NCBI GenBank assembly: GCA_041389865.1
Contig: JAWKRA010000004.1
Location: 50,307 to 114,306 of the forward strand
Length of the DNA stretch: 64,000 nucleotides
Direction: 5' to 3'
Source: Nannocystaceae bacterium
Lineage (GTDB): Bacteria > Myxococcota_A > Polyangia > Nannocystales > Nannocystaceae
The position numbers and the translations under genes were made by a program. This document shows, in pieces, positions 20,501 to 62,392 of this stretch (position 1 is its first letter; each line of letters opens with the position of its first letter). The notes under the pieces were generated by a model. It made no database searches, was not told where the DNA came from, and worked only from the letters and a program-made list of their open reading frames with translations.

Positions 20501-21101
20501 CGCCGCCCTCCTCCTCTTGTTGCTCGAGGGTCCGGTGCAAGCGCCGGCGGCGGCTGAGCCCGCGAAGGTCCACGCGCTCCCCCGGCGACCGACCATCGCC
20601 GAGGTGCAGGACGCTGCGCTCGCCCGGCTGGTGCCGTTCTCGCGGCGACAGTCGCGGCGATGGATCCGCCGCTCGCGGGCCGCGGCCGTGCTCCCGAGTC
20701 TGCGGGCCGAGTTCGACGTCGACAGCGATCAGGGCTGGAAGCTCGATCAGGAGGCCGGCGCCGCCGACGAGCTCTCGCAGGACCTCGGCGCCGGTCGGTC
20801 GCTTCGGCTGCAGGCGACCTGGGAGCTCGACCGCCTCATCTTCAACGCCGACGAGCTGCGAGCGGCCCGCGCCGCGGTCGATCTCGAGCGTGAGCGCGAG
20901 CGCGTGCTCCTCGAGGTCACGCGGCTCTACTTCGAGCGTCTGCAGCTGCTCCTCGAGACAGAAGCAGCGCCGGCCAGCGACCCGGCGAGCCTCGCTCGCG
21001 CGCTGCGACTGGCCGAGGTCGAGGCCCTGCTCACGGCCATGACCGGCCTCGAATTCCCGCGAGAACACGCCTCCGAACGCCCGTTAAAGCGCCAACCGTG
21101 A
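20497..21101 (+). CDS. Hypothetical secreted coiled-coil protein
   Basis: Signal peptide MIAALLLLLLEGPVQAPA, then heptad-rich sequence loosely like a TolC repeat. It is translationally coupled to the upstream ORF. Confidence 0.4.
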
Positions 21102-21262
21102 TGCCGCCCACCGTGCACACAGGTACACGTTGTTTCGCCAAATCCCCGCGCATCGAGCTGCGCACGCGCACAGGGAAGCGCTTGCTTCGAGCGGTTTGGC
21201 CCCACCGGCTCGGGAGCCCAAGAAATCGAAATCACTGGAGATTGTCTCGAGATGCGGTATGA

Positions 21263-21514
21263 GTGGAGGCGGTGTCTGGAGATTGCATGGAGGTCGCCGG
21301 GGTTCTCGTCATGCAGCCCACCTCGCTCGATCCAAATCCAACGGCCGGCTCTGCGCGCGCCGTGTCCATCCTGGCCCGCTCGCTGTTCCGGCAGATGCGC
21401 GAGCAGGGGTATTCGGCGGCCGAGATCATTGGGCTCTCCTCCGAGCTCCTTGATCTGGTCTCCTCCGACCTCAAGCGCGATCGGACGCAGGCCCTCGCCG
21501 ACGCCGCCGAGTGA
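21263..21514 (+). CDS. Small hypothetical protein upstream of pgk
   Basis: 83-aa ORF (or 67 aa from MQPTSL) with a helix-turn-helix-like stretch GYSAAEIIGLSSELLDLV. Confidence 0.3.
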   Translation: MEAVSGDCMEVAGVLVMQPTSLDPNPTAGSARAVSILARSLFRQMREQGYSAAEIIGLSSELLDLVSSDLKRDRTQALADAAE

Positions 21515-21587
21515 GCCCCGAAAGCTCACGTCTGCGGCTGCCACCGCGCGTGGACTTGCAGCCGTGACGTGAGTATTGCTGCCCGCC

Positions 21588-22820
21588 ATGGTGGTCTCGG
21601 AGCCCGCGCTGCCGCGCCTTGAGGCGCTCGACGTCGACAACCGACGCGTGTTCGTACGCGTCGACTTCAACGTCCCCATCACCAAGTCCGGCCTGGTCCG
21701 CGACGACACCCGCATCCGGGCCGCGCTCCCGACCCTGCGCTTGTTGCGGGACCGGGACGCCAAGCTGATCCTCGCCTCGCACCTCGGTCGACCCAAGGGG
21801 CCTGACCCGCGGCTCTCGCTCGAGCCGGTCGCGGCGCGGCTCGCCGAACTGCTCGACACCGAGGTCCGCCTGCCGGACGAAGTCGTCGGCGACGGGGTCC
21901 GCAAGCTGGTGCTCGACACCCGCGCGGGACAGGTCATCCTGCTCGAGAACCTCCGCTTTCACCCCGGCGAGACCAAGAACGATCCGGCCTTCGCGGCCGC
22001 GCTCGCGGCCCTCGCAGACATCTACGTCAACGACGCGTTCGGCGCGAGCCACCGCGCCCACGCCTCGGTCGTCGGCGTTCCCGGGCTGCTCCACGAGCGC
22101 GCCCCCGGGCTCCTGCTCCGCGCCGAGATCGAGGCGCTGCGTCGCGTGGTCCACGATCCCGAGCGTCCGTTCGCGGCCATCGTCGGCGGCGCGAAGGTCT
22201 CCGACAAGCTGCCCGTGCTCCACGCCCTGGTCGATCGCTTGGTCGCCGGCGACCGCCTGCTCATCGGCGGGGCCATGGCCAACACCTTCCTCGCCGCCTC
22301 GGGGATGGCGATCGGCGCCTCGCTGCACGAGCCCGATCAGTTCTCCGCGTGCGTCAACCTCCTCGCCCGCGCCCGCGCCCGCGACGTCAGGATCCAGCTG
22401 CCCGTCGACGTCCGCGTCGGCGCCAGCGTCCAGGCCGACCACGCGCGCGTGGTCCCGGCGGGACCCGAGGCCCACGGCCTCGCCGACAACGAGCTCGCCC
22501 TCGACATCGGCCCCCACACGGCGGCCGCGTTCGCCCGCGCCATCGCCGACGCCCGCACCGTGTTCTGGAACGGCCCGATGGGCCTGTTCGAAAACCCGGC
22601 GTTCGCCGAGGGCACCCTCGACCTCGCCCGCGCGGTCGCCGAGTGCCCGGGCTTTACGGTGGTCGGCGGGGGCGACAGCGTCGCGGCCGTCCAGGAGAGC
22701 GGCGTCGCCGAGCACATCAACCACATCTCCACCGGCGGCGGCGCGGCCCTCGAGATGATCGAGGGCAAGATCCTGCCAGGGGTCGCGGCGCTCTACCCAT
22801 CGGAGCCGCGGGGTGCCTGA
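21588..22820 (+). CDS. pgk: Phosphoglycerate kinase
   Basis: RVDFNVP, ASHLGRPKG and GGGDS motifs across a full-length ~410-aa protein. Confidence 0.95.
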   Translation: MVVSEPALPRLEALDVDNRRVFVRVDFNVPITKSGLVRDDTRIRAALPTLRLLRDRDAKLILASHLGRPKGPDPRLSLEPVAARLAELLDTEVRLPDEVVGDGVRKLVLDTRAGQVILLENLRFHPGETKNDPAFAAALAALADIYVNDAFGASHRAHASVVGVPGLLHERAPGLLLRAEIEALRRVVHDPERPFAAIVGGAKVSDKLPVLHALVDRLVAGDRLLIGGAMANTFLAASGMAIGASLHEPDQFSACVNLLARARARDVRIQLPVDVRVGASVQADHARVVPAGPEAHGLADNELALDIGPHTAAAFARAIADARTVFWNGPMGLFENPAFAEGTLDLARAVAECPGFTVVGGGDSVAAVQESGVAEHINHISTGGGAALEMIEGKILPGVAALYPSEPRGA

Positions 22821-23616
22821 CAGCAACGGCCCCAGACGCAAGCGCTGGGTCATCGGCAACTTCTCGCAGCACCTCCTGCGAACCCAGGCCGAAGAGCACG
22901 TCACCGAGCTGATCCGCGGCCTCCCGCCCGAGGTCCTCGACGCCGACGAGCTGCGGATCGGCGTCGCCCCCAGCTTCCTGGCGCTCGAGACCTGCCGACC
23001 GTGGGCGCGCCCGGCGGGGCCGCTGGTGCTGCTGGCCCAGAACGCGAGCGGTGTTGAGACGGGCCCGTTCACCGGCGAGATCGGCCCCGGTATGCTCGCC
23101 GATGTCGGCGCCCATGGCGCGCTCATCGGCCATTGGCACCGCCGCGTCCACTTTCGCGAGTCGAACACCCAGATCGCAAGCAAGCTCCAGGGCCTGCTCG
23201 AGGCCGGCATGCACGTCGCGCTCTGCGTCGGCGACCCGCCCGAGACCCGCGAGAGTCGAAATCACGAAAACCACGTAATTTCGCAGCTTTCGACCGCATT
23301 TCTTAATGTAGATTCTGCGTTCGTTTGCGGGCGCCTCGTGATCGTCTATCAGCCCGTCTGGGCCCTCGCCCACGACCGGCCCACGCGCCCCGAGCAGGCG
23401 GCCCACATGCACCGTCGCATCCGCAGCTGGATGGGCGAGCGCTTCGGCGATGCCGGTCGCGGCAGATCGATCCTCCACGGTGGTACCGTGGGACCCGATC
23501 AGATCGGCGCCCTCCTCGGCTCAGGCGAGGTCGACGGGTTCCTGCTCGAGGCCCCGTCGCTTGACGTGAGCGCATTCCTCGATATCGTCCGGGCCATGGC
23601 CCCCGCTCGGCCCTGA
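22813..23616 (+). CDS. tpiA: Triosephosphate isomerase homolog with substituted catalytic residues
   Basis: TIM-barrel collinearity (AQN, GPFTGEI, IGH, PVWA, ILHGGTV). GNWKMN reads GNFSQH (K12 to S). GHSERR reads GHWHRR (E97 to H). YEPVWAIGTG reads YQPVWALAHD (E165 to Q). Start overlaps the pgk stop. Confidence 0.8.
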   Translation: MPDSNGPRRKRWVIGNFSQHLLRTQAEEHVTELIRGLPPEVLDADELRIGVAPSFLALETCRPWARPAGPLVLLAQNASGVETGPFTGEIGPGMLADVGAHGALIGHWHRRVHFRESNTQIASKLQGLLEAGMHVALCVGDPPETRESRNHENHVISQLSTAFLNVDSAFVCGRLVIVYQPVWALAHDRPTRPEQAAHMHRRIRSWMGERFGDAGRGRSILHGGTVGPDQIGALLGSGEVDGFLLEAPSLDVSAFLDIVRAMAPARP

Positions 23617-23623
23617 AGCGACC

Positions 23624-24172
23624 ATGTTCGACATCCTCGTCACCATCGTCACGATCATCTTCACCATCGTCAGCCTGATCATGGTGCTCGTGATCCTCCT
23701 GCAGGCCGGCAAGGGCGGCATGGGCACGGCCCTCGGCGGCGGCGCGAGCCAGAGCGTGTTCGGCGGCGGCGGCGGGGCGGATGTCCTGGCCAAAGCCACC
23801 CAGGGCATGGCCGCGACCTTCATGATCTGCTCGATCTTCCTCGCCTACGCGAGCTCGCACAGCGAATCGAGCCGCCTCAAGGACAAGAGCGAGGACCTCG
23901 AGGAGGAGGCTGGCCTGCTCGATGAGGACGCGCCGATTGACTACGAGAAGCTCGGCAACTACCTCGAGCTCCCCGAGGGTCCGATCCCTGACGCCTCCGC
24001 CGCGCCTCCGCCCATCGAGGAGACGAGCCCCGAGCCGCCTGCCGACGAAGCCCCTCCCGAGGACGGCGGCGAGCCGATCGCGGCGCCTTCGCTCGACGGC
24101 GTCGCCGAGCTGCCAGCCGAGGACACGGGCCCGCCCGATACGCTGGTCCCGGGCGACGCCGAAGAGCCCTAG
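23624..24172 (+). CDS. secG: Preprotein translocase subunit SecG with a long acidic C-terminal extension
   Basis: Two TM helices flank the Gly-rich loop (LLQAGKGGMGTALGGGASQSVFGGGGG). It sits in the canonical pgk–tpi–secG position. The 100-aa D/E/P-rich tail is non-canonical. Confidence 0.8.
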   Translation: MFDILVTIVTIIFTIVSLIMVLVILLQAGKGGMGTALGGGASQSVFGGGGGADVLAKATQGMAATFMICSIFLAYASSHSESSRLKDKSEDLEEEAGLLDEDAPIDYEKLGNYLELPEGPIPDASAAPPPIEETSPEPPADEAPPEDGGEPIAAPSLDGVAELPAEDTGPPDTLVPGDAEEP

Positions 24173-24204
24173 CCCGGACTTCTCACCCCGGGCTCGCCGC
24201 GCGC

Positions 24205-25011
<807 letters not shown>

Positions 25012-25101
25012 GCGCGCTCCGGCGCCACGGGACAGGTCCTAAGGACCATGTGGAGCGGCGCAGCCCTGGAAAGAAGCGCGTGGCGCCGGTCCCAGGGTGT
25101 G

Positions 25102-26061
25102 ATGTCTGGATCCGTGCGCGCACTCATCGTCCTTGTAGCCCTGTCCCTTGGTTCCTGTGGTGACAAGGGCGCGGAAACGAGCACCGGGACCGAGACCGAC
25201 GGCGAGACGACCGCCGGACCGACGTCGTCGACGACGCTGACGAGCTCGGACTCGTCGGATCCGACGACGACGAGCGACCCGAGCACCACGGCGCCCGAGA
25301 CCACCGATCCCTCGGGCACCGAGACCGGCACCGACACCGGCACCACCGACACCGACGCGACTGACACCGACACCGACACCGACGCGACCACCGACGGCCT
25401 CGGCTGCAAGCCGATCGACTGCGGCGGCAAGATCTACGAGTGCGGCGACTGCCTCGACAACGACGACGACGGCCTCGTCGACTTCGCCGACCCCGAGTGC
25501 ATCAGCCCGTGCGACGACAAGGAGGCGACCTTCGCCACCGGCCTGCCCGGCGACAACATGGACGCCTGCAACCAGGACTGCTTCTTCGACGGCAACAGCG
25601 GCAGCGGCGACGACAAGTGCGTGTGGAACCTGAAGTGCGACATGAACAACCCGGGCGGCGACGACTGCCCCTACGACCCTGACTTCAAGAACTGCCCCGA
25701 AGAGCAGGACGCCATGTGCACCGAGAGCTGCCAGGTGCCCAACGGCTGCGACTGCTTCGGCTGCTGCACCGTGCTCTACATGGGCATGAACGTCGACATC
25801 TACATCGGCGACGAGGACTGCTCGCTCTCCGAGATCGAGCTGTGCCAGACCTGCACCAAGAACGAGGACTGCGACGACGACTGCGACCCCGAGATGTGCG
25901 AGGTCTGCTTCGGCCAGGACCCCGACGACCTCCCGCCCGAGTGCGACGGCGGCGAGTGTGAGGAGGGCAAGCAGGCGTGTGAGGTCGACGCCATGGGCGG
26001 CAGCGACTGCCCCGACGGCTTCTTCTGCTTCGTCGGCTGCTGCGAGCAGATCATCGGCTGA
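25102..26061 (+). CDS. Cys-rich secreted lipoprotein with a Thr/Asp-rich linker
   Basis: Lipobox [11 protein letters not shown]-rich low-complexity linker, then about 30 Cys in C-x-x-C and CC contexts. Start taken at MSGSVRAL. Confidence 0.6.
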
Positions 26062-27298: not shown

Positions 27299-27625
27299 CC
27301 GACGTCAAAGGGGCTGCCTGTTCGAGTCTCCCGACTCTTGCGGGGGCGCTCCATGACTGTCTTTTCGGCCATCTTCAACGATCCGCCAGTCGCCGACGGG
27401 GCCACCTGTCCGAGCCTCGCTCGCGGGGCCCTCCCCGACCTGTCCCTCCGCCATCTTCAACGATCGCGCCCAGTCGCCGACGGGGCCACCTGTCCGAGCC
27501 TCCCGCTCGCGCGGGCCTCTCCCCGACCTGGCTCTCCCGCCATCCTCGACGGTCGCGCCCAGTCACCGACGTCAAAGGGGCCGCGTGTCCGAGTCTCCCG
27601 CGCCCGCCCGCGCGGGCTTCGGCGG
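27253..27625 (+). repeat. Four tandem copies of an ~85-bp GC-hairpin repeat
   Basis: Units begin near 27253, 27371, 27451 and 27538. They share CCGCCATC(C/T)TC(G/A)ACG(G/A)TCGCGCCCAGT..CCGACG..GGGC..CCTGTCCGAG and each carries an internal palindrome. Confidence 0.8.
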
Positions 27626-38188: not shown

Positions 38189-39895
38189 TCACGGCGCGTA
38201 CTTGGTGATCCACAGCGAGGCGAGGTTCTCGACCTGGTAGACCTCGCCGACCGCGTAGACGTTGCCGTCGCCGTCGACCGCGACCCCGTGCGCGATATCG
38301 TTGCCGCCCTGCTCGTCGTGGCGCTGCTCCCAGATGACCTCGCCGACCGGGTCGCGCTTGCTCACCCAGGTGTCGACGAGCGCCTCGTACTCCTCGCCCG
38401 CGAACACCAGGGTGCCGTCGGGGCCGACCGCGACGCCGCGGCCGACGTCGTTGTCCCCGCCCGCGCTCGAGTGCTCGAGCCGCCAGAGCTCGAGCCCGTC
38501 GGCGGCGCCGTAGGTGCCCATCCAGACGTTGACGAGCTGATCGACGGTGTAGGTCTCGCCGGTGAGGACGAGATCGCCGTCGGCGTTGACGGCCGCGCCG
38601 CGGGCCCGATCGACGCCCGCGTTGTTGTCGATCGAGTGGCTCCACTCGATGACGCCGAGCGGCGAGTACCGGCGCAGGAACACGTTGTCGAGGCCGATCC
38701 ACTCGTACACGCCGCCGACCACGAAGATCTCACCGTCCGCGCCAGTCGCAACCCCGTGGCCGCCGTCGTTGCCGCCGGCGTGATCGTGGGTGTGGGCGAA
38801 CCACAGATCGCCGTCGGGCCCGTACTTGGCGGTCCACACGTCGGCGAGGCCGATCAGGTGGTACTCCTCGCCGGTGACGATGATGTTGTCGTCGCGGTCG
38901 ACCGAGACCCCGCGCGCGCGATCGTCCCCCGAGTCGTCCCCGTTGTGGGTGAGGGTCCACAGCTCGTTGCCGTCGCTGTCGAACTTGCCGATCCACGCGT
39001 TGGCGTTGTCGAACGCGACGAACACCTCACCGACCGCGATGATGTTGTCCTCGCTGTCGACCGCGACCCCGCGGCCGATGTCGTCGCCGCTGCCGTCGCC
39101 GTTGAAGCTCTTGGACCAAATCACCTGCCCGTCGGGGCTGTACTTGCGCAGGAAGATGTTGGCGTTCTCGACCAGCTGGAATTCCTGGCCGACGACGATC
39201 GCGTTGCCGGCCCCGTCGACCGCGACCCCGCGGGCGACCGCGATGCCGAGGTCCTTGCCCGGGTAGATGTCGGTCCACAGCGGCGTGCCCGAGACCACGC
39301 AGTCGCTGTTGCAGCCGTCGCCGTTGATGTCGTTGCCGTCGTCGCAGGCCTCGACGGCCTCGTCGGGGTAGAGCTCGCCGTCACCGCAAAACGGGCCGAG
39401 CTCGGCGCAGCCCGGGGCGCAGCCGCCGTGGCTGTCGTTGTTGACCCCGTCGTCGCAGACCTCGACGCCCGCCTGCACCAAGCCGTCGCCGCAGATCGCG
39501 TTGGCGCAGCTCGAGGTGCACGCGCCGTCGTCGGCGTTCTGGGCCCCCTCGTCGCACTCCTCATCGCCCTCGACCGCCCCGTTCCCGCACTCGGGGACGA
39601 TGCACATGCACTCGCCGAAGCCGCTGCCGTCGTCCTTGCAGATCTCGACGCCGTCGCTCGCCTCACACGGGCACGCCTGCTGCTCGCCGGGCGTGCACAC
39701 CGAGCCCGTGTCGCTGGAAGAGCTGCCCGGCCCCGCGGTGGTCCCCTCGCTGTCGCTCTCGCTGCCCGAAGTGGTCTCGGTGTCCGTGTCGGCGCCGGTC
39801 TCGGTGGCAGTGCCGGTGCCGATCGGATCATCGCCGCCGCAGGCGACCAGGAGGGCGAGGCTCAGGAGCGAGGGGGCGCGACGCAGGGAGATCAT
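38189..39895 (-). CDS. Lipoprotein with myxo-type Cys-rich repeats and SBBP beta-propeller repeats
   Basis: Lipobox LLVACGG and a T/S/D linker. Four repeats of the form CGDG....E.CDDGN...DGC. Then about 8 copies of GVAVD.DGN..V.G (SBBP-like). Confidence 0.65.
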   Translation of the reverse strand: MISLRRAPSLLSLALLVACGGDDPIGTGTATETGADTDTETTSGSESDSEGTTAGPGSSSSDTGSVCTPGEQQACPCEASDGVEICKDDGSGFGECMCIVPECGNGAVEGDEECDEGAQNADDGACTSSCANAICGDGLVQAGVEVCDDGVNNDSHGGCAPGCAELGPFCGDGELYPDEAVEACDDGNDINGDGCNSDCVVSGTPLWTDIYPGKDLGIAVARGVAVDGAGNAIVVGQEFQLVENANIFLRKYSPDGQVIWSKSFNGDGSGDDIGRGVAVDSEDNIIAVGEVFVAFDNANAWIGKFDSDGNELWTLTHNGDDSGDDRARGVSVDRDDNIIVTGEEYHLIGLADVWTAKYGPDGDLWFAHTHDHAGGNDGGHGVATGADGEIFVVGGVYEWIGLDNVFLRRYSPLGVIEWSHSIDNNAGVDRARGAAVNADGDLVLTGETYTVDQLVNVWMGTYGAADGLELWRLEHSSAGGDNDVGRGVAVGPDGTLVFAGEEYEALVDTWVSKRDPVGEVIWEQRHDEQGGNDIAHGVAVDGDGNVYAVGEVYQVENLASLWITKYAP

Positions 39896-40043
39896 CGGCG
39901 GAGGGTAGCATTTTCGCGCCTCGGCCATAGCCCGCGCCGGCGTGACCGGGCGCGCTCCGGCCACCGTCGCGATCGCAGGGATCGACGGCGTGGGTCGCCG
40001 ACCCCGGCGCGCGACGAACTTGCGCGGCCCGAGCCGCCCCTGC

Positions 40044-42458
40044 TCAGGACTCGCCGTCCTGGGCCGGCGCGTCGTCGGCGGTCGCCAGCGCCGAGAGCTG
40101 ATCGATCGTCAGGAGCCGACCGACCCGCGGATCGTCGCTGTGCAGCTTCTCGTGGGCCAGCGGGTCGGCGCGCTCGAGCTCGCCAGGCTCGCCGCCCAGG
40201 CCCAGGAGCTGGCGAATCGCGCGGCGTGAGCCGTAGTAGTTGCCCGAGTGGTGATCCTCCTCGGTGTTGCAGCGCCGGATCTTCGACAGCGAGATCGGCG
40301 GGAGGTTCAGCATCTGCAGGGCCCGATCCCAGATCTGTCCGAGCCGGTTCTGATCGGCCGGGAACTCGAGCAGGCTGGCGAGCGTGAGCAGCAAGCCGGC
40401 GCGCTGGCCCGCGATCGTGTCGAGCGGCGCGCGCCCGCCGAGGTAGCCGAGATCGATCGCCCGCCAGAAGGCCTCGGCGGCGATGAGCAGGCGCTTGAGC
40501 TCGGACGGGCTGTGCGAGAGCCAGGCGTTGAACATCACGTCGGCCGCGAGCCCGCCCTCGGCCGCCGCGTCCTTGGTGTAGCGGATCACCGCCGGCAGCT
40601 GGCCGAGCGGGACCTCGGGGCCCTTGCCGGTCGGCACGTCGGTGGGCGGCTCACCCGGACCGAAGAAGCCGGCGCCGCGGAACGCGTAGAAGCGCTCGGC
40701 CTCGCCGGGCAGCTCGTCCCATAGCTCGCTGTATTGGGTGACGCGGTTCATGCTGCCGGCCGACCAGCCCAGGCCGCGGGCCGCCTCGCCGCTGACCTGC
40801 GAGCCCGCGACGCCGGGGTCGCGCGGGACCCCGCCCGCGCGCGCGTCCTCGGCGATGGCGACCAGCTGGAAGTCGAGGAAGCCGTCGTAGAAGTCGGCCT
40901 TGCCGTCGTGGTTGATGTCCTCGTAGCGCGAGACCACGGCCGGGTGCGCGGGCCCGATGAACTGCACGAAGCCCTCGACCCGCTGCTGCCGGTGGTACCA
41001 CTGGGCCTCGCGGATGCGGGCGTCGATGCCGGCGAAGTCCTCGCCCTTGGCGAACCCCTGCAGCAGCGCGTGGAGGCAGTCACAAGCCTCGGAGTCGACG
41101 ATCTTGTGGCCCTCGCCGGTGCGGAAGTAGGTCGAGTCCCACGACGAGTAGATGTCGGCGTCGGGGAACATCCGCGAGATCGCAAACCGCGTCGTCAGGC
41201 CCGCGCACTGGGCGTTCAGCATCAGCTTGTAGCCGCGCTGCTCGACCGCCACCTGCGAGGCCGCCATGTCGTTGGCGCCGAGGTTGGCGTGGCGGCTGAT
41301 CGCGAGGCCGACGAAGTACTCGTGGCCCATCTCGAAGTTCTCGTCGCGCGGGCTGGTGGTGCGGGTCCAGATCTGGATCTCCTGCCCGTCAGGGCCGGCA
41401 AACGGCGCCTTGAGGATCTCGTAGCCGCGCCAGCCGGGCGGCGTCGGGGCGCCCTCGGGGGCCGCCATCTCGGTGTACTTGTAGCGGTCGCGGAGGATCT
41501 CGTACTCGCCCGGGTGGAAGTCGTAGGCCGAGGCGAAGCCGAACCGCCAGACGTCCTTGGGGAGCTGCGCGTAGGGCGGGCTCTTGCGGGTGTAGCCGGC
41601 GAGCAGCTCCTTGACCTGGGCGGCGTGGGCCTCGGAGAGCGCCGGCCCGCGCATCTGCAGGAGCATCAGCGCGTGGTTGCGCAGCTCGGGGCGCCCGCCC
41701 TCCCCGGCCTCGGCCTCGATGAGCGCGAGGATGCGAGCAGCTGCCCGATCCGCCAGGTCGCGGAATTCGGGGTCCTTGAGGACGGTGGCGACCACGTGGG
41801 AGAGGACGGTGACGCAGGCCGAGCGCAGCTGCACGGCCTGGGCGCGGGCCTCGTCGCCCTCGGCGGCAGAGACCGCCGCGGCCGCGAGCACGGCGTCGAC
41901 CTGATCGAGCAGCGCCGCGCCCTGGGCGACCGAGAGCCGCTCTGGTCTCTCGGGCAGGTCGGGGTGGAAGGGGCTCGGCGGGAACAGCCGCTCGAAGCTC
42001 GAGCTGCGCCGCGACGAGATCCAGCGGGCCGCCGTGACCATGGTGTCGAGCGCGTCGAGCCCGCGCGGGGCCTCGCCGTCGGCGCTTGACGAGAGTGTCC
42101 CCTCGGACAGCAAGTAAAGCGGCGCCGCGCCGTGCAGCCCGCCGGTGAGGTCGAGCGGCGGCGCCTCGCCGCGGACCGCCTCGAGCTTGCGACGCAGCCC
42201 GCGACGCCCGTCGAAGCGGACCAGCACCCGGTGGCCGACGCCCTCCTGGACCGACGCCTGATCGGCGCCCTCGACGATGACGTGGTAATCGCGCGGACCC
42301 GTGAGCAGGAGGTGGAGGCCGTCCTCTGCAGCGTCAAAGCTCTGCTTGGCGGCCTCGTCGGCGGCGATCAGCTGACCGACGAATTCCCTGTCACCAAGCA
42401 CCACCTGTACACTCGTAACTCCCGATTGCGTCGGCATCTCGATCTCTCCTGTCACCAC
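40044..42458 (-). CDS. Large hypothetical protein (804 aa)
   Basis: High-GC3 ORF with no recognisable motif. The antisense ORFs are Arg-rich shadows. Confidence 0.5.
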   Translation of the reverse strand: MVTGEIEMPTQSGVTSVQVVLGDREFVGQLIAADEAAKQSFDAAEDGLHLLLTGPRDYHVIVEGADQASVQEGVGHRVLVRFDGRRGLRRKLEAVRGEAPPLDLTGGLHGAAPLYLLSEGTLSSSADGEAPRGLDALDTMVTAARWISSRRSSSFERLFPPSPFHPDLPERPERLSVAQGAALLDQVDAVLAAAAVSAAEGDEARAQAVQLRSACVTVLSHVVATVLKDPEFRDLADRAAARILALIEAEAGEGGRPELRNHALMLLQMRGPALSEAHAAQVKELLAGYTRKSPPYAQLPKDVWRFGFASAYDFHPGEYEILRDRYKYTEMAAPEGAPTPPGWRGYEILKAPFAGPDGQEIQIWTRTTSPRDENFEMGHEYFVGLAISRHANLGANDMAASQVAVEQRGYKLMLNAQCAGLTTRFAISRMFPDADIYSSWDSTYFRTGEGHKIVDSEACDCLHALLQGFAKGEDFAGIDARIREAQWYHRQQRVEGFVQFIGPAHPAVVSRYEDINHDGKADFYDGFLDFQLVAIAEDARAGGVPRDPGVAGSQVSGEAARGLGWSAGSMNRVTQYSELWDELPGEAERFYAFRGAGFFGPGEPPTDVPTGKGPEVPLGQLPAVIRYTKDAAAEGGLAADVMFNAWLSHSPSELKRLLIAAEAFWRAIDLGYLGGRAPLDTIAGQRAGLLLTLASLLEFPADQNRLGQIWDRALQMLNLPPISLSKIRRCNTEEDHHSGNYYGSRRAIRQLLGLGGEPGELERADPLAHEKLHSDDPRVGRLLTIDQLSALATADDAPAQDGES

Positions 42459-60429: not shown

Positions 60430-60754
60430 GGTGCGCGCGTGGCCTCGTCCACTTCCATGACTTACACGGATCTACGGCTGGTTCGACGCACCCGAAAGTA
60501 GCACACCCAGCCAGATTCCTCGGCGATTGCGGACGGCCCGCTTGGTATCGCCCTGTGTGCCTGAATGTGTAGGTTCTGGGCGCCTGTCTGGATCGGTCGC
60601 ACCGGCCGCGCGCCGTCGGAGAGTGATCGCGGGAAACGCGGGCTCGCGCCGCGACGGTCATCGTCTGCAGGCTGGCTGAGACACCTCGCGACGCGCGAGC
60701 GTCCGAGCGTGCGCCGCGAGATCCGGCGCTCCGAGGCGCCGTCGCGGCGATCGC

Positions 60755-62392
60755 TTGCGCCCGCGCGGTTCCACGCGTAGCGTCGCGCGCATGCGAGCGG
60801 TCCGGCGCGCGCCTCTTCACCTGTCCCATCGTACATCTTCAAACGCAGGCGCCGCGCGATCCAGCGTCGTCGCGGCTGCCCCGAGAGACACGCGGCGCAT
60901 CGTCAGCGTCGGCCTGGCGCTCGCGATCACGCGGGTCGCCTGCGGCGGCGGCGAGGACGACTCCAGCACGGAGACGGGGCCTGCGACCACCGTGAGCGCG
61001 TCGACGAGCGCGTCCGGGACCGGTCACGAGGCGACCGACCCCAGCGACGCGACCGCCTCCGATCCGAGCGACACGGTCCACGGCAGCGACAGCGACGGCA
61101 CCGACGGCACCGACGCGACCGACGACACCGCCGCGACCACCGACGACATCACCGCGACCGACACCGACGCGACCACCGCTCCGACCGACGCGACCACCGA
61201 TCCCACCGACGCGACCACCGATCCGACCGACGCGACCACCGATTCGACGGAGACGGATGGATGTCCTGAAGGACAGCTCGAATGCCCGTGCGGACCGATG
61301 GCCAGCTGCGACGACGGCCTCGTCTGCGAGGCGGACGTCTGCGTCCCCGGGGCGATCTGCGGCGACGGGGCGCTCGATCCCGGCGAGGGCTGCGACGACG
61401 GCAACCTCGACGGCGGCGACGGCTGCAGCCCGACCTGCACGCTCGAGAGCTGCGGGAACGGGATCACGGATCCGGGCGAGGCCTGCGACGACGGCATGGA
61501 CGGCGACAACGACGACGGCTGCACCGACCTGTGCGCGAAGCCAAGCTGCGGCGACGGCTTCGTCCAGCAGAGCCTCGGCGAAGCCTGCGACGATGGCCCC
61601 CAGAACAACGACGGCGCCGCCTGCACGCTCGCGTGCGCGCAGGCCAGCTGCGGCGACGGCAAGCTCTGGGTCGGCGAGGAGGAGTGCGACGACGGCAACG
61701 GCGTCAACACCGACGCCTGCCTCGCCAGCTGCGCCGCGGCCTCCTGCGGCGACGGCTTCGTGTGGAGCGGCCAAGAGGAGTGCGACGACGGCAACGGCGT
61801 CAACAACGACCTCTGCAGCAACACCTGCACCCTCAACGAGATGGGCGGCGAGGACCCGTGCGGCTTCGCCGACGACGACGGCGTCTGGATCGACATCGAC
61901 TACGAGGACGCCTTCACGGTCACGAGCCCCGACTACAGCTACTCGCCGACGCCGGCCTGGCAGGAGCCCGAGTGGACGCCGACCCAGATGGGCTACTTCT
62001 GGCCTAAGGTCGTGGACCTCTACAACAACATGACGGTCGACAACGATCCGATCGGCAAGCTCGCGGTCATCAAGTCCAACAGCACCCTGCGCCTGTACTT
62101 CGGGACCAAGAACCTGTGGAGCTACACGAGCGCGACGGTGTGCGTGACCGGGCGCAGCGTCTCGGTCAGCTCGCCGGTGACCTTCCAGGTCATCAACCCG
62201 GCCAACGGCGACTGCGGGGCCTCGGCGATGATGTCGCACGACTGGACGGTGCACGCCTCGGGCGTGACGATGCCGGCCAACTGCATCATCCCCAACCACG
62301 GCTTCCAGGCCATCGACATCGACGCGACCGGCGGCAGCGCCAAGCTCGGGGTCCGCAGCGTCCGCCTGACCCTCCACGGCGCGCAGTACTGA
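60755..62392 (+). CDS. Lipoprotein with five myxo-type Cys-rich repeats and a C-terminal beta-rich domain
   Basis: Lipobox-like LAITRVACGG. T/D-rich linker encoded by 21-nt tandem repeats (TDATTDP x3). Five repeats of the form CG(D/N)G...EECDDGN...D.C...C. Start uncertain. Confidence 0.6.
   Translation: MRPRGSTRSVARMRAVRRAPLHLSHRTSSNAGAARSSVVAAAPRDTRRIVSVGLALAITRVACGGGEDDSSTETGPATTVSASTSASGTGHEATDPSDATASDPSDTVHGSDSDGTDGTDATDDTAATTDDITATDTDATTAPTDATTDPTDATTDPTDATTDSTETDGCPEGQLECPCGPMASCDDGLVCEADVCVPGAICGDGALDPGEGCDDGNLDGGDGCSPTCTLESCGNGITDPGEACDDGMDGDNDDGCTDLCAKPSCGDGFVQQSLGEACDDGPQNNDGAACTLACAQASCGDGKLWVGEEECDDGNGVNTDACLASCAAASCGDGFVWSGQEECDDGNGVNNDLCSNTCTLNEMGGEDPCGFADDDGVWIDIDYEDAFTVTSPDYSYSPTPAWQEPEWTPTQMGYFWPKVVDLYNNMTVDNDPIGKLAVIKSNSTLRLYFGTKNLWSYTSATVCVTGRSVSVSSPVTFQVINPANGDCGASAMMSHDWTVHASGVTMPANCIIPNHGFQAIDIDATGGSAKLGVRSVRLTLHGAQY

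Follow-up and report, generated by a model that had tools for sequence, protein, structure and literature searches.

Within the 64,000-nucleotide window analysed here (the whole stretch of DNA examined, from the genome of a Nannocystaceae bacterium), the gene at the position of tpiA encodes a member of the triosephosphate isomerase (TIM) fold family that fails the defining features of the enzyme and is probably a pseudoenzyme or a repurposed TIM barrel. In its fuller form, which we hold with moderate confidence, the proposal is that this is the tpiA orthologue of an uncultured species, without TIM chemistry but maintained by selection as a folded barrel. The gene and the five segments that carry most of the altered active site are as follows.

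22813-23616, + strand: TIM-family open reading frame (ORF) of 267 amino acids with a GTG start (NCBI MEZ4426229.1), the positional tpiA orthologue with a dismantled active site.
22858-22866, + strand: loop 1, codons N16-F17-S18 (N10-W11-K12 in TIM numbering); Asn remains, with Phe in place of Trp and Ser in place of Lys.
23131-23139, + strand: loop 4, codons H107-W108-H109 (H95-S96-E97 in TIM numbering); His remains, with Trp in place of Ser and His in place of Glu.
23350-23376, + strand: end of strand 6 and loop 6; Q180 stands at the position of the base E165, the P181-V-W183 hinge is kept and the tip A-L-A-H-D (184-188) replaces A-I-G-T-G.
23476-23487, + strand: loop 7, H222-G-G-T225 in place of Y208-G-G-S211.
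23545-23556, + strand: loop 8, L245-E246-A247-P248 in place of V231-G232-G233-A234, with a carboxylate where backbone NH groups bind phosphate.

The alignments to solved TIMs, made with HMMER, have no gaps around any of the motifs, and they place GNFSQH of the window protein against GNWKMH, GHWHRR against GHSERR and YQPVWALAHD against YEPVWAIGTG. In TIM numbering, Lys12 is replaced by Ser, Ser96 by Trp, Glu97 by His and Glu165 by Gln. Asn10 and His95 are retained, and the catalytic quartet of Asn10, Lys12, His95 and Glu165 reads Asn, Ser, His and Gln, with two of the four residues replaced. A preliminary description of this DNA had reported a TIM-collinear protein with K12S, E97H and E165Q and with His95 in place, and the gap-free alignments agree with it. 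However, its count of three catalytic residues replaced out of four must be lowered to two, because E97 is a supporting residue that lies outside the standard quartet. The damage was also understated there, as the changes listed were correct but S96W and the rewriting of loops 6, 7 and 8 were missed. A realignment that restores Lys and Glu to the catalytic positions is ruled out by the lack of gaps around every motif. All three loops of the phosphodianion gripper have been rewritten (AIGTG to ALAHD, YGGS to HGGT and VGGAS to LEAPS), all four of the phosphate-contacting positions have changed (G171A, S211T, G232E and G233A), and the new Trp at position 96 adjoins the former position of the catalytic base. 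Altogether, the protein combines at least 11 active-site changes. The features that it retains include the loop 3 dimer-interface motif FTGE (Thr75), the Arg-Arg pair of loop 4, the Pro-Val-Trp hinge, Gly209-Gly210 and the family-specific motifs RPAGPL and HE.HVISQLS.

The scaffold around this site is that of a TIM. Residues 12-261 match Pfam PF00121 from position 2 to position 244 of the 245 in the profile (E=2.5e-49; 168.4 bits against a cut-off of 20.1), and PDB chains representing 184 distinct sequences were matched at E<=0.001, with 60 of 60 among the matches listed being TIMs. The match to Thermus thermophilus TIM (1YYA; E=1.3e-35) is collinear over the whole protein. AlphaFold2, run with a family alignment, gave eight strand-helix units with a predicted local distance difference test score (pLDDT) of 89.5 and a predicted template modelling score (pTM) of 0.90, and a Foldseek comparison of this model with solved TIMs gave target-normalised TM-scores (TMt) of 0.87-0.93 at a root-mean-square deviation of about 2 A. 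The window protein is thus confidently predicted to be a (beta/alpha)8 TIM barrel. The cut-offs of the NCBIfam tpiA equivalogs were missed in nine of nine models (for example, 118.4 versus 293 for NF000722, and 100.7 versus 130.6 for TIGR00419). Scores below every one of these cut-offs fit the product name given by the Prokaryotic Genome Annotation Pipeline (PGAP), which is only 'triose-phosphate isomerase family protein'.

What would such changes cost a TIM? Laboratory variants of the enzyme (K12G, K12M, E165D, Y208F and replacements of loops 6 and 7) alter the same positions as those changed here and therefore predict the consequences in the window protein (PMC12874384). In these studies, activity was undetectable in K12M and fell 600,000-fold in K12G and 420-fold in E165D, and Y208F cost 4.4 kcal/mol (PMC12874384). 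The laboratory variants carry single or few engineered changes, whereas the natural protein carries the full set described above. Furthermore, N11, K13, H95 and E167 are described as highly conserved in TIMs, with Ser96 present in 98% of sequences (PMC12874384). Taken with our alignments, the mutagenesis data identify the window protein as one that has lost residues essential to the ancestral reaction, which is one mark of a pseudoenzyme. E165Q turns the catalytic base into an amide, and K12S removes the cation that holds both the phosphodianion and the enediolate, such that the protein should be able neither to bind nor to deprotonate dihydroxyacetone phosphate (DHAP) or glyceraldehyde 3-phosphate (GAP). 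Because these catalytic losses are combined with a carboxylate (G232E) in the phosphate site, we infer from the sequence, with high confidence, that DHAP/GAP isomerisation is excluded. The statement in the preliminary description that the canonical isomerisation cannot proceed is therefore supported, both by the mutant data (PMC12874384) and by the loss of the phosphate gripper.

These substitutions are exceptional among relatives. We compared the protein with 22 full-length Nannocystaceae TIMs, to which it is 43-53% identical, and all 22 keep the canonical Lys12 and Glu165. In a leave-one-out comparison, 75 columns show no variation in the other 22 proteins, and of these the window protein changes 25 and retains 50; any other member changes 0-2, and 25 of 75 is far beyond chance. 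When 1.84 billion representatives were searched with HMMER without filters, the best 150, which were examined, were all canonical TIMs. At 20 active-site positions the window protein reads NSHWHQPWLAHDHGGTLLEA; of the 175 aligned sequences, 115 have the canonical string, NKHSEEPWIGTGYGGSLVGG, and no other full-length protein among the 175 was found to lack K12 or E165. We found no sister lineage that shares the substitutions (identity is 53% to the nearest TIM and 71% to the nearest Pgk), and a literature search produced no report of a natural TIM orthologue without its catalytic residues.

An artefact of sequencing, assembly or binning might be suspected in a singleton lineage known from a metagenome-assembled genome (MAG), and the preliminary description had held that the absence of the substitutions from all close relatives would indicate sequence error. 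They are indeed absent from those relatives, yet the same gene is present in five other assemblies, with the altered residues kept in all of them. The protein is identical in three independent Logan assemblies and differs by one residue (S168P) in two ENA assemblies, and nucleotide identity across the ORF is 99.3-99.9%. In addition, the adjoining region is represented in a second MAG from this species (GCA_020431275.1; 99.5% identical). The probability that we attach to an artefact is accordingly negligible; the additional assemblies and the second MAG have already refuted it.

The history of the gene is also distinctive. The window TIM is 48-51% identical to those of four relatives, versus 59-64% among the relatives themselves, and Pgk, SecG and DapF show no comparable gap. 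Tajima relative-rate tests on TIM gave 52-64 versus 19-33 unique changes, in 12 of 12 triplets (p 2e-5 to 0.03), and the same tests on Pgk, SecG and DapF revealed no excess in the window lineage. TIM is the only one of the four operon genes compared that has accelerated in this lineage, by about 2-fold. Within the species, the ORF in six haplotypes carries five synonymous polymorphisms and one non-synonymous polymorphism, giving a ratio of non-synonymous to synonymous polymorphism (pN/pS) of 0.068; under neutrality, at least five of six would be synonymous with a probability of 0.005-0.012. The neighbouring genes in this species carry seven synonymous and six non-synonymous polymorphisms. In this small sample, the TIM-like protein sequence is under purifying selection.

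The distribution of the changes was examined further by simulating uniform neutral decay, tuned to reproduce 25 changes in the 75 invariant columns, which took about 0.18 substitutions per site (300 runs). Eight codons in the window gene needed at least two nucleotide changes, versus 2.9 in the simulations, and eight was reached in none of the 300 runs; a subset of sites has therefore turned over repeatedly and the rest have stayed put. Changes among the invariant columns fall preferentially on the catalytic face, which holds 21 of the 25 changed columns versus 29 of the 50 kept ones (Fisher p=0.037, with the face as defined by ourselves). The implied probability of extra change, from invariant to variable columns, is 0.33, 0.23, 0.16 and 0.30, and the excess extends beyond the active site. 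The 267-codon ORF is intact and collinear with its relatives, with no stop and no lineage-specific indel, and so does not have the broken frame of a disrupted pseudogene. Similarly, the low pN/pS and the excess of multi-hit codons are not the neutral substitution pattern of a unitary pseudogene, although the acceleration does extend over all conservation classes. The G+C content at third codon positions (GC3) is 0.84, in line with the 0.82 and 0.85 of canonical tpiA in the two relatives of similar genomic G+C; no decay of codon usage was seen in the ORF, a comparison that is uninformative at this divergence.

How, then, should the gene be read? That it is simply decaying is a third option that was absent from the preliminary description. 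Here the TIM function would have been lost or displaced, and a drifting ORF would have stayed open by chance or through needs at the level of the operon, such as translational coupling, polarity on secG-dapF or an embedded DNA element at 23263-23292. The general acceleration, the neutral-model probability of 0.17 that no stop arises, the conserved nucleotide patch and sigma70-like site (23561-23588) inside the ORF and the singleton lineage all fit this account. However, it must also accommodate the synonymous bias of the polymorphisms and the multi-hit codon pattern, which rejects uniform decay, as well as a fold predicted at high confidence. In bacteria, indels arise at roughly one tenth the rate of substitutions, and several frameshifts would be expected over the divergence needed; the observed number of lineage-specific indels is zero. 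Having tested it, and allowing for the small polymorphism sample, we regard a drifting pseudogene as disfavoured and unlikely. Still less can be said for a triosephosphate isomerase that continues to work through alternative residues. Such an enzyme would make sense of the tpiA operon position and of the retention of Asn10, His95, the hinge and Gly209-Gly210, but the base position has no carboxylate, Lys12 is gone, a Glu occupies Gly232 in the phosphate site and the alignments leave no shifted register. As comparable single changes cost 10^2 to 10^6-fold in activity (PMC12874384), we consider this highly improbable.

The main rival is a neofunctionalised enzyme that has acquired a new activity towards a non-phosphorylated substrate, perhaps dependent on a metal or on His, and that would use the retained Asn10 and His95 alongside the newly gained His109, His187, Asp188, His222 and Glu246. 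Purifying selection supports it, just as it supports the reading that we favour, and the enrichment of changes on the catalytic face points the same way. So do the multi-nucleotide changes K18S, E109H, T187H, K227G, N230Q and A231I, which exceed the neutral expectation, and the 13 His residues of the protein, versus 3-9 in the 22 relatives. On the other hand, the gain of His at invariant columns is marginal (three observed versus about one expected; P about 0.07), and S96W, G171A, G233A and A234P are bulky or rigid and suggest filling of the pocket over reshaping. Furthermore, the new residues are not conserved in any sister lineage, and the unaltered operon context offers no sign of a new pathway. 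We therefore think a new enzyme possible but rather doubtful. The related idea of an operon-encoded TIM redesigned in place, with a new activity or ligand and a His/Asp/Glu-lined pocket that no longer binds phosphate, is likewise put forward only tentatively; if true, it would be a rare case of a natural TIM orthologue whose active site has been re-purposed, and perhaps the first to be reported.

We favour a maintained role other than that of TIM. Binding of a ligand or metal, or service as a structural or regulatory partner, is placed first and new catalysis second. The pocket would keep the neutral, hydrogen-bonding Asn10 and His95 and would gain the His, Asp and Glu residues named above, and the bulkier S96W, G171A, G233A and A234P may partly fill it. 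Because of the residues kept and gained, the most likely role would be the binding, and not the turnover, of a non-phosphorylated or cationic small ligand or of a metal. Alternatively, within the same reading, the protein may have a structural or regulatory function in which its partner is another copy of itself, Pgk or a true TIM. Several points weigh against a maintained non-TIM role. The His/Asp/Glu pocket rests on positional equivalence, no ligand or partner can be named for the protein, and the second TIM sought in the 64 kb window was not found there. The polymorphism sample is tiny (six sites, in two haplotype groups), the spread of extra substitutions across all conservation classes also fits a general relaxation of constraint, and at 70% G+C, with a probability of 0.17 of meeting no stop, an intact ORF is weak evidence. 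Finally, the substitutions are confined to one lineage with no sister that shares them, and long-term conservation of the new residues therefore cannot be shown.

The genes around the TIM-like ORF place it in the usual operon.

21576-22820, + strand: pgk (phosphoglycerate kinase), canonical (Pfam PGK, E=8.8e-143), with an identical NCBI protein.
22802-22805, + strand: GGAG, a Shine-Dalgarno-like motif within the pgk 3' end, 7 nt 5' of the GTG, as read from the sequence.
23624-24172, + strand: secG (Pfam SecG and TIGR00810).
24205-25011, + strand: dapF (diaminopimelate epimerase; TIGR00652, 211.8 bits), the end of the conserved block, in the same order in L004-L007.

In NCBI, Pgk, the TIM-like protein, SecG and DapF are MEZ4426228-31, from a 120,879 bp contig of the MAG 'Nannocystaceae bacterium' (Myxococcota, Polyangia); pgk is there given a start four codons later, at 21588 (410 aa; MEZ4426228.1). 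Its product is 67-70% identical to those of relatives, without rate excess. The stop codon of pgk, at 22818-22820, leaves an overlap of 8 nt with the TIM-like ORF on the same strand, and the GGAG inside the pgk 3' end would allow translational coupling from pgk to the TIM-like ORF. The preliminary description had already placed the gene in a pgk-tpi-secG operon with an 8 nt overlap with pgk, and both the coordinates and the flanking-gene profiles agree. The gene order pgk-tim-secG-dapF recurs in five relatives (L004-L008), which establishes positional orthology within the pgk-tpiA-secG operon, and the best matches of the protein are Nannocystaceae-type TIMs. Because of this five-relative synteny, the Nannocystaceae-type matches and the retention of a family-specific stretch of unusual codons, we read the ORF as a vertically inherited, positional tpiA orthologue and not as a foreign gene.

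Directly 5' of pgk lies an ORF of 83 aa (21263-21514, + strand), and a small gene of 64-81 aa occupies the same place in relatives L004-L006 and L008, such that a conserved small protein heads the operon. At the other end, directly 3' of dapF, the ORF at 25048-26061 (+ strand) encodes a Thr/Asp-rich region followed by a Cys-rich region. All three Logan contigs (L001-L003) stop exactly at 23752, in the Gly-rich region of secG (23752-23883). The ENA contig L011 shows seven mismatches and no gaps over 1,131 nt (22622-23752), followed after 23758 by many mismatches and paired indels. This break at about 23752-23758 suggests that part of secG varies between strains or is recombinant, or that a repeat breaks assemblies there. 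The alignment to L010 (GCA_020431275.1) is interrupted at 27333-27495, which indicates an indel or small rearrangement between strains. Farther away in the window lie an 843-aa bacterial vault-protein-like gene (30752-33283, - strand), with major-vault-protein shoulder, Vault_3 and Band_7/SPFH domains, and two large DUF4215-repeat proteins (38189-40108, - strand, and 60680-62392, + strand).

The unusual codons mentioned above form a patch that is conserved at the level of the DNA.

23251-23328, + strand: AT-rich rare-codon patch (codons 147-172), with DNA-level conservation in the tpiA of all relatives and kept here.

Its core, at 23263-23292, is CACGAAAACCACGTAATTTCGCAGCTTTCG, within a conserved CACGAA..GTAATTTCGCAGCTTTCG stretch. 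We compared seven sequences, the tpiA genes of six relatives (L004-L009) and the window gene, in which synonymous sites are otherwise saturated. The rare codons GAA and CTT are present in seven of the seven, ATT in five and GTA in four, in genes with a GC3 of 0.61 to 0.85; the A/T-ending count in the patch is 35-40 of 70, versus a mean of 13. Rfam and tRNA scans gave no match, and no Rfam family corresponds to the patch. The patch might function as an internal promoter, as a point of translational pausing or as an RNA site serving secG-dapF downstream. A sigma70-like site (TTGACG, 16 nt, TATCGT) is present at 23561-23588, at the 3' end of the TIM-like ORF and 36 nt before the ATG of secG. It is the sole such site in 21000-25200, where shuffled sequences gave a mean of 0.1.

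If the operon-encoded protein is no longer a TIM, where is the cell's TIM? The preliminary description had offered two answers, a functional tpiA elsewhere or an unusual lower glycolysis. The DNA read for a second one comprised the 64 kb window and one 6 kb contig of the same-species MAG. A six-frame hidden Markov model search found no second TIM in the window, and peptide-pattern scans found no copy of the TIM-like gene in GTDB genomes or JGI metagenomes. A profile search for a second tpiA returned mostly Burkholderiales TIMs. Two Nannocystaceae-type TIMs were considered, MEZ4454803 and MCA9714575, but their accession numbers are removed from those of this species' proteins by about 28,500 and 19,100, which assigns them to other MAGs of the same submissions. 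The closest TIM (P0002; 53% identical) is not a paralogue, as it belongs to a different organism, where it has a pgk operon of its own. Gluconeogenesis requires TIM, and a second tpiA is for that reason the likelier solution; the TIM activity of the cell is most likely supplied by a gene beyond the window. Mycobacterium tuberculosis can reportedly dispense with TIM in vitro, and in an extreme variant this may be a free-living myxobacterium without any TIM that bypasses triose-phosphate interconversion.

Comparison with known systems helps to locate the protein. Like the canonical Nannocystaceae TpiA (Nannocystis sp. RBIL2, P0004) and 1YYA, it has the TIM fold, length and collinearity, and the Nannocystaceae gene also shares its operon position, family motifs and unusual codon usage. 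It differs from canonical TpiA in K12S, S96W, E97H, E165Q, the three rewritten grippers and its roughly 2-fold rate. The second TIM paralogues of some alphaproteobacteria (TpiB or EryH type), linked to erythritol catabolism, are likewise TIM-family proteins with a role beyond glycolytic DHAP/GAP isomerisation. However, those paralogues are additional copies within catabolic clusters, have their catalytic residues in place and work on sugar phosphates, whereas here the operonic orthologue itself has changed and the phosphate site is lost. A further parallel is found in dead-enzyme paralogues that serve as partners, such as the prozyme of trypanosomatid S-adenosylmethionine decarboxylase (AdoMetDC), as here too a relative of an oligomeric enzyme has been stripped of catalytic residues and yet preserved by selection. 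TIM functions as an obligate dimer, and its interface loop is conserved in the window protein, but for this protein heterodimerisation is pure conjecture.

In summary, the catalytic residues of TIM have been treated as essentially invariant, and the window protein is a natural exception. The lineage is flagged as one in which the function of tpiA must be displaced or bypassed, and automatic annotation could score a complete lower glycolysis for a genome that may lack it. As a dismantled orthologue under purifying selection, the protein also offers a ready-made test of what the TIM barrel can become once it has been released from catalysis.

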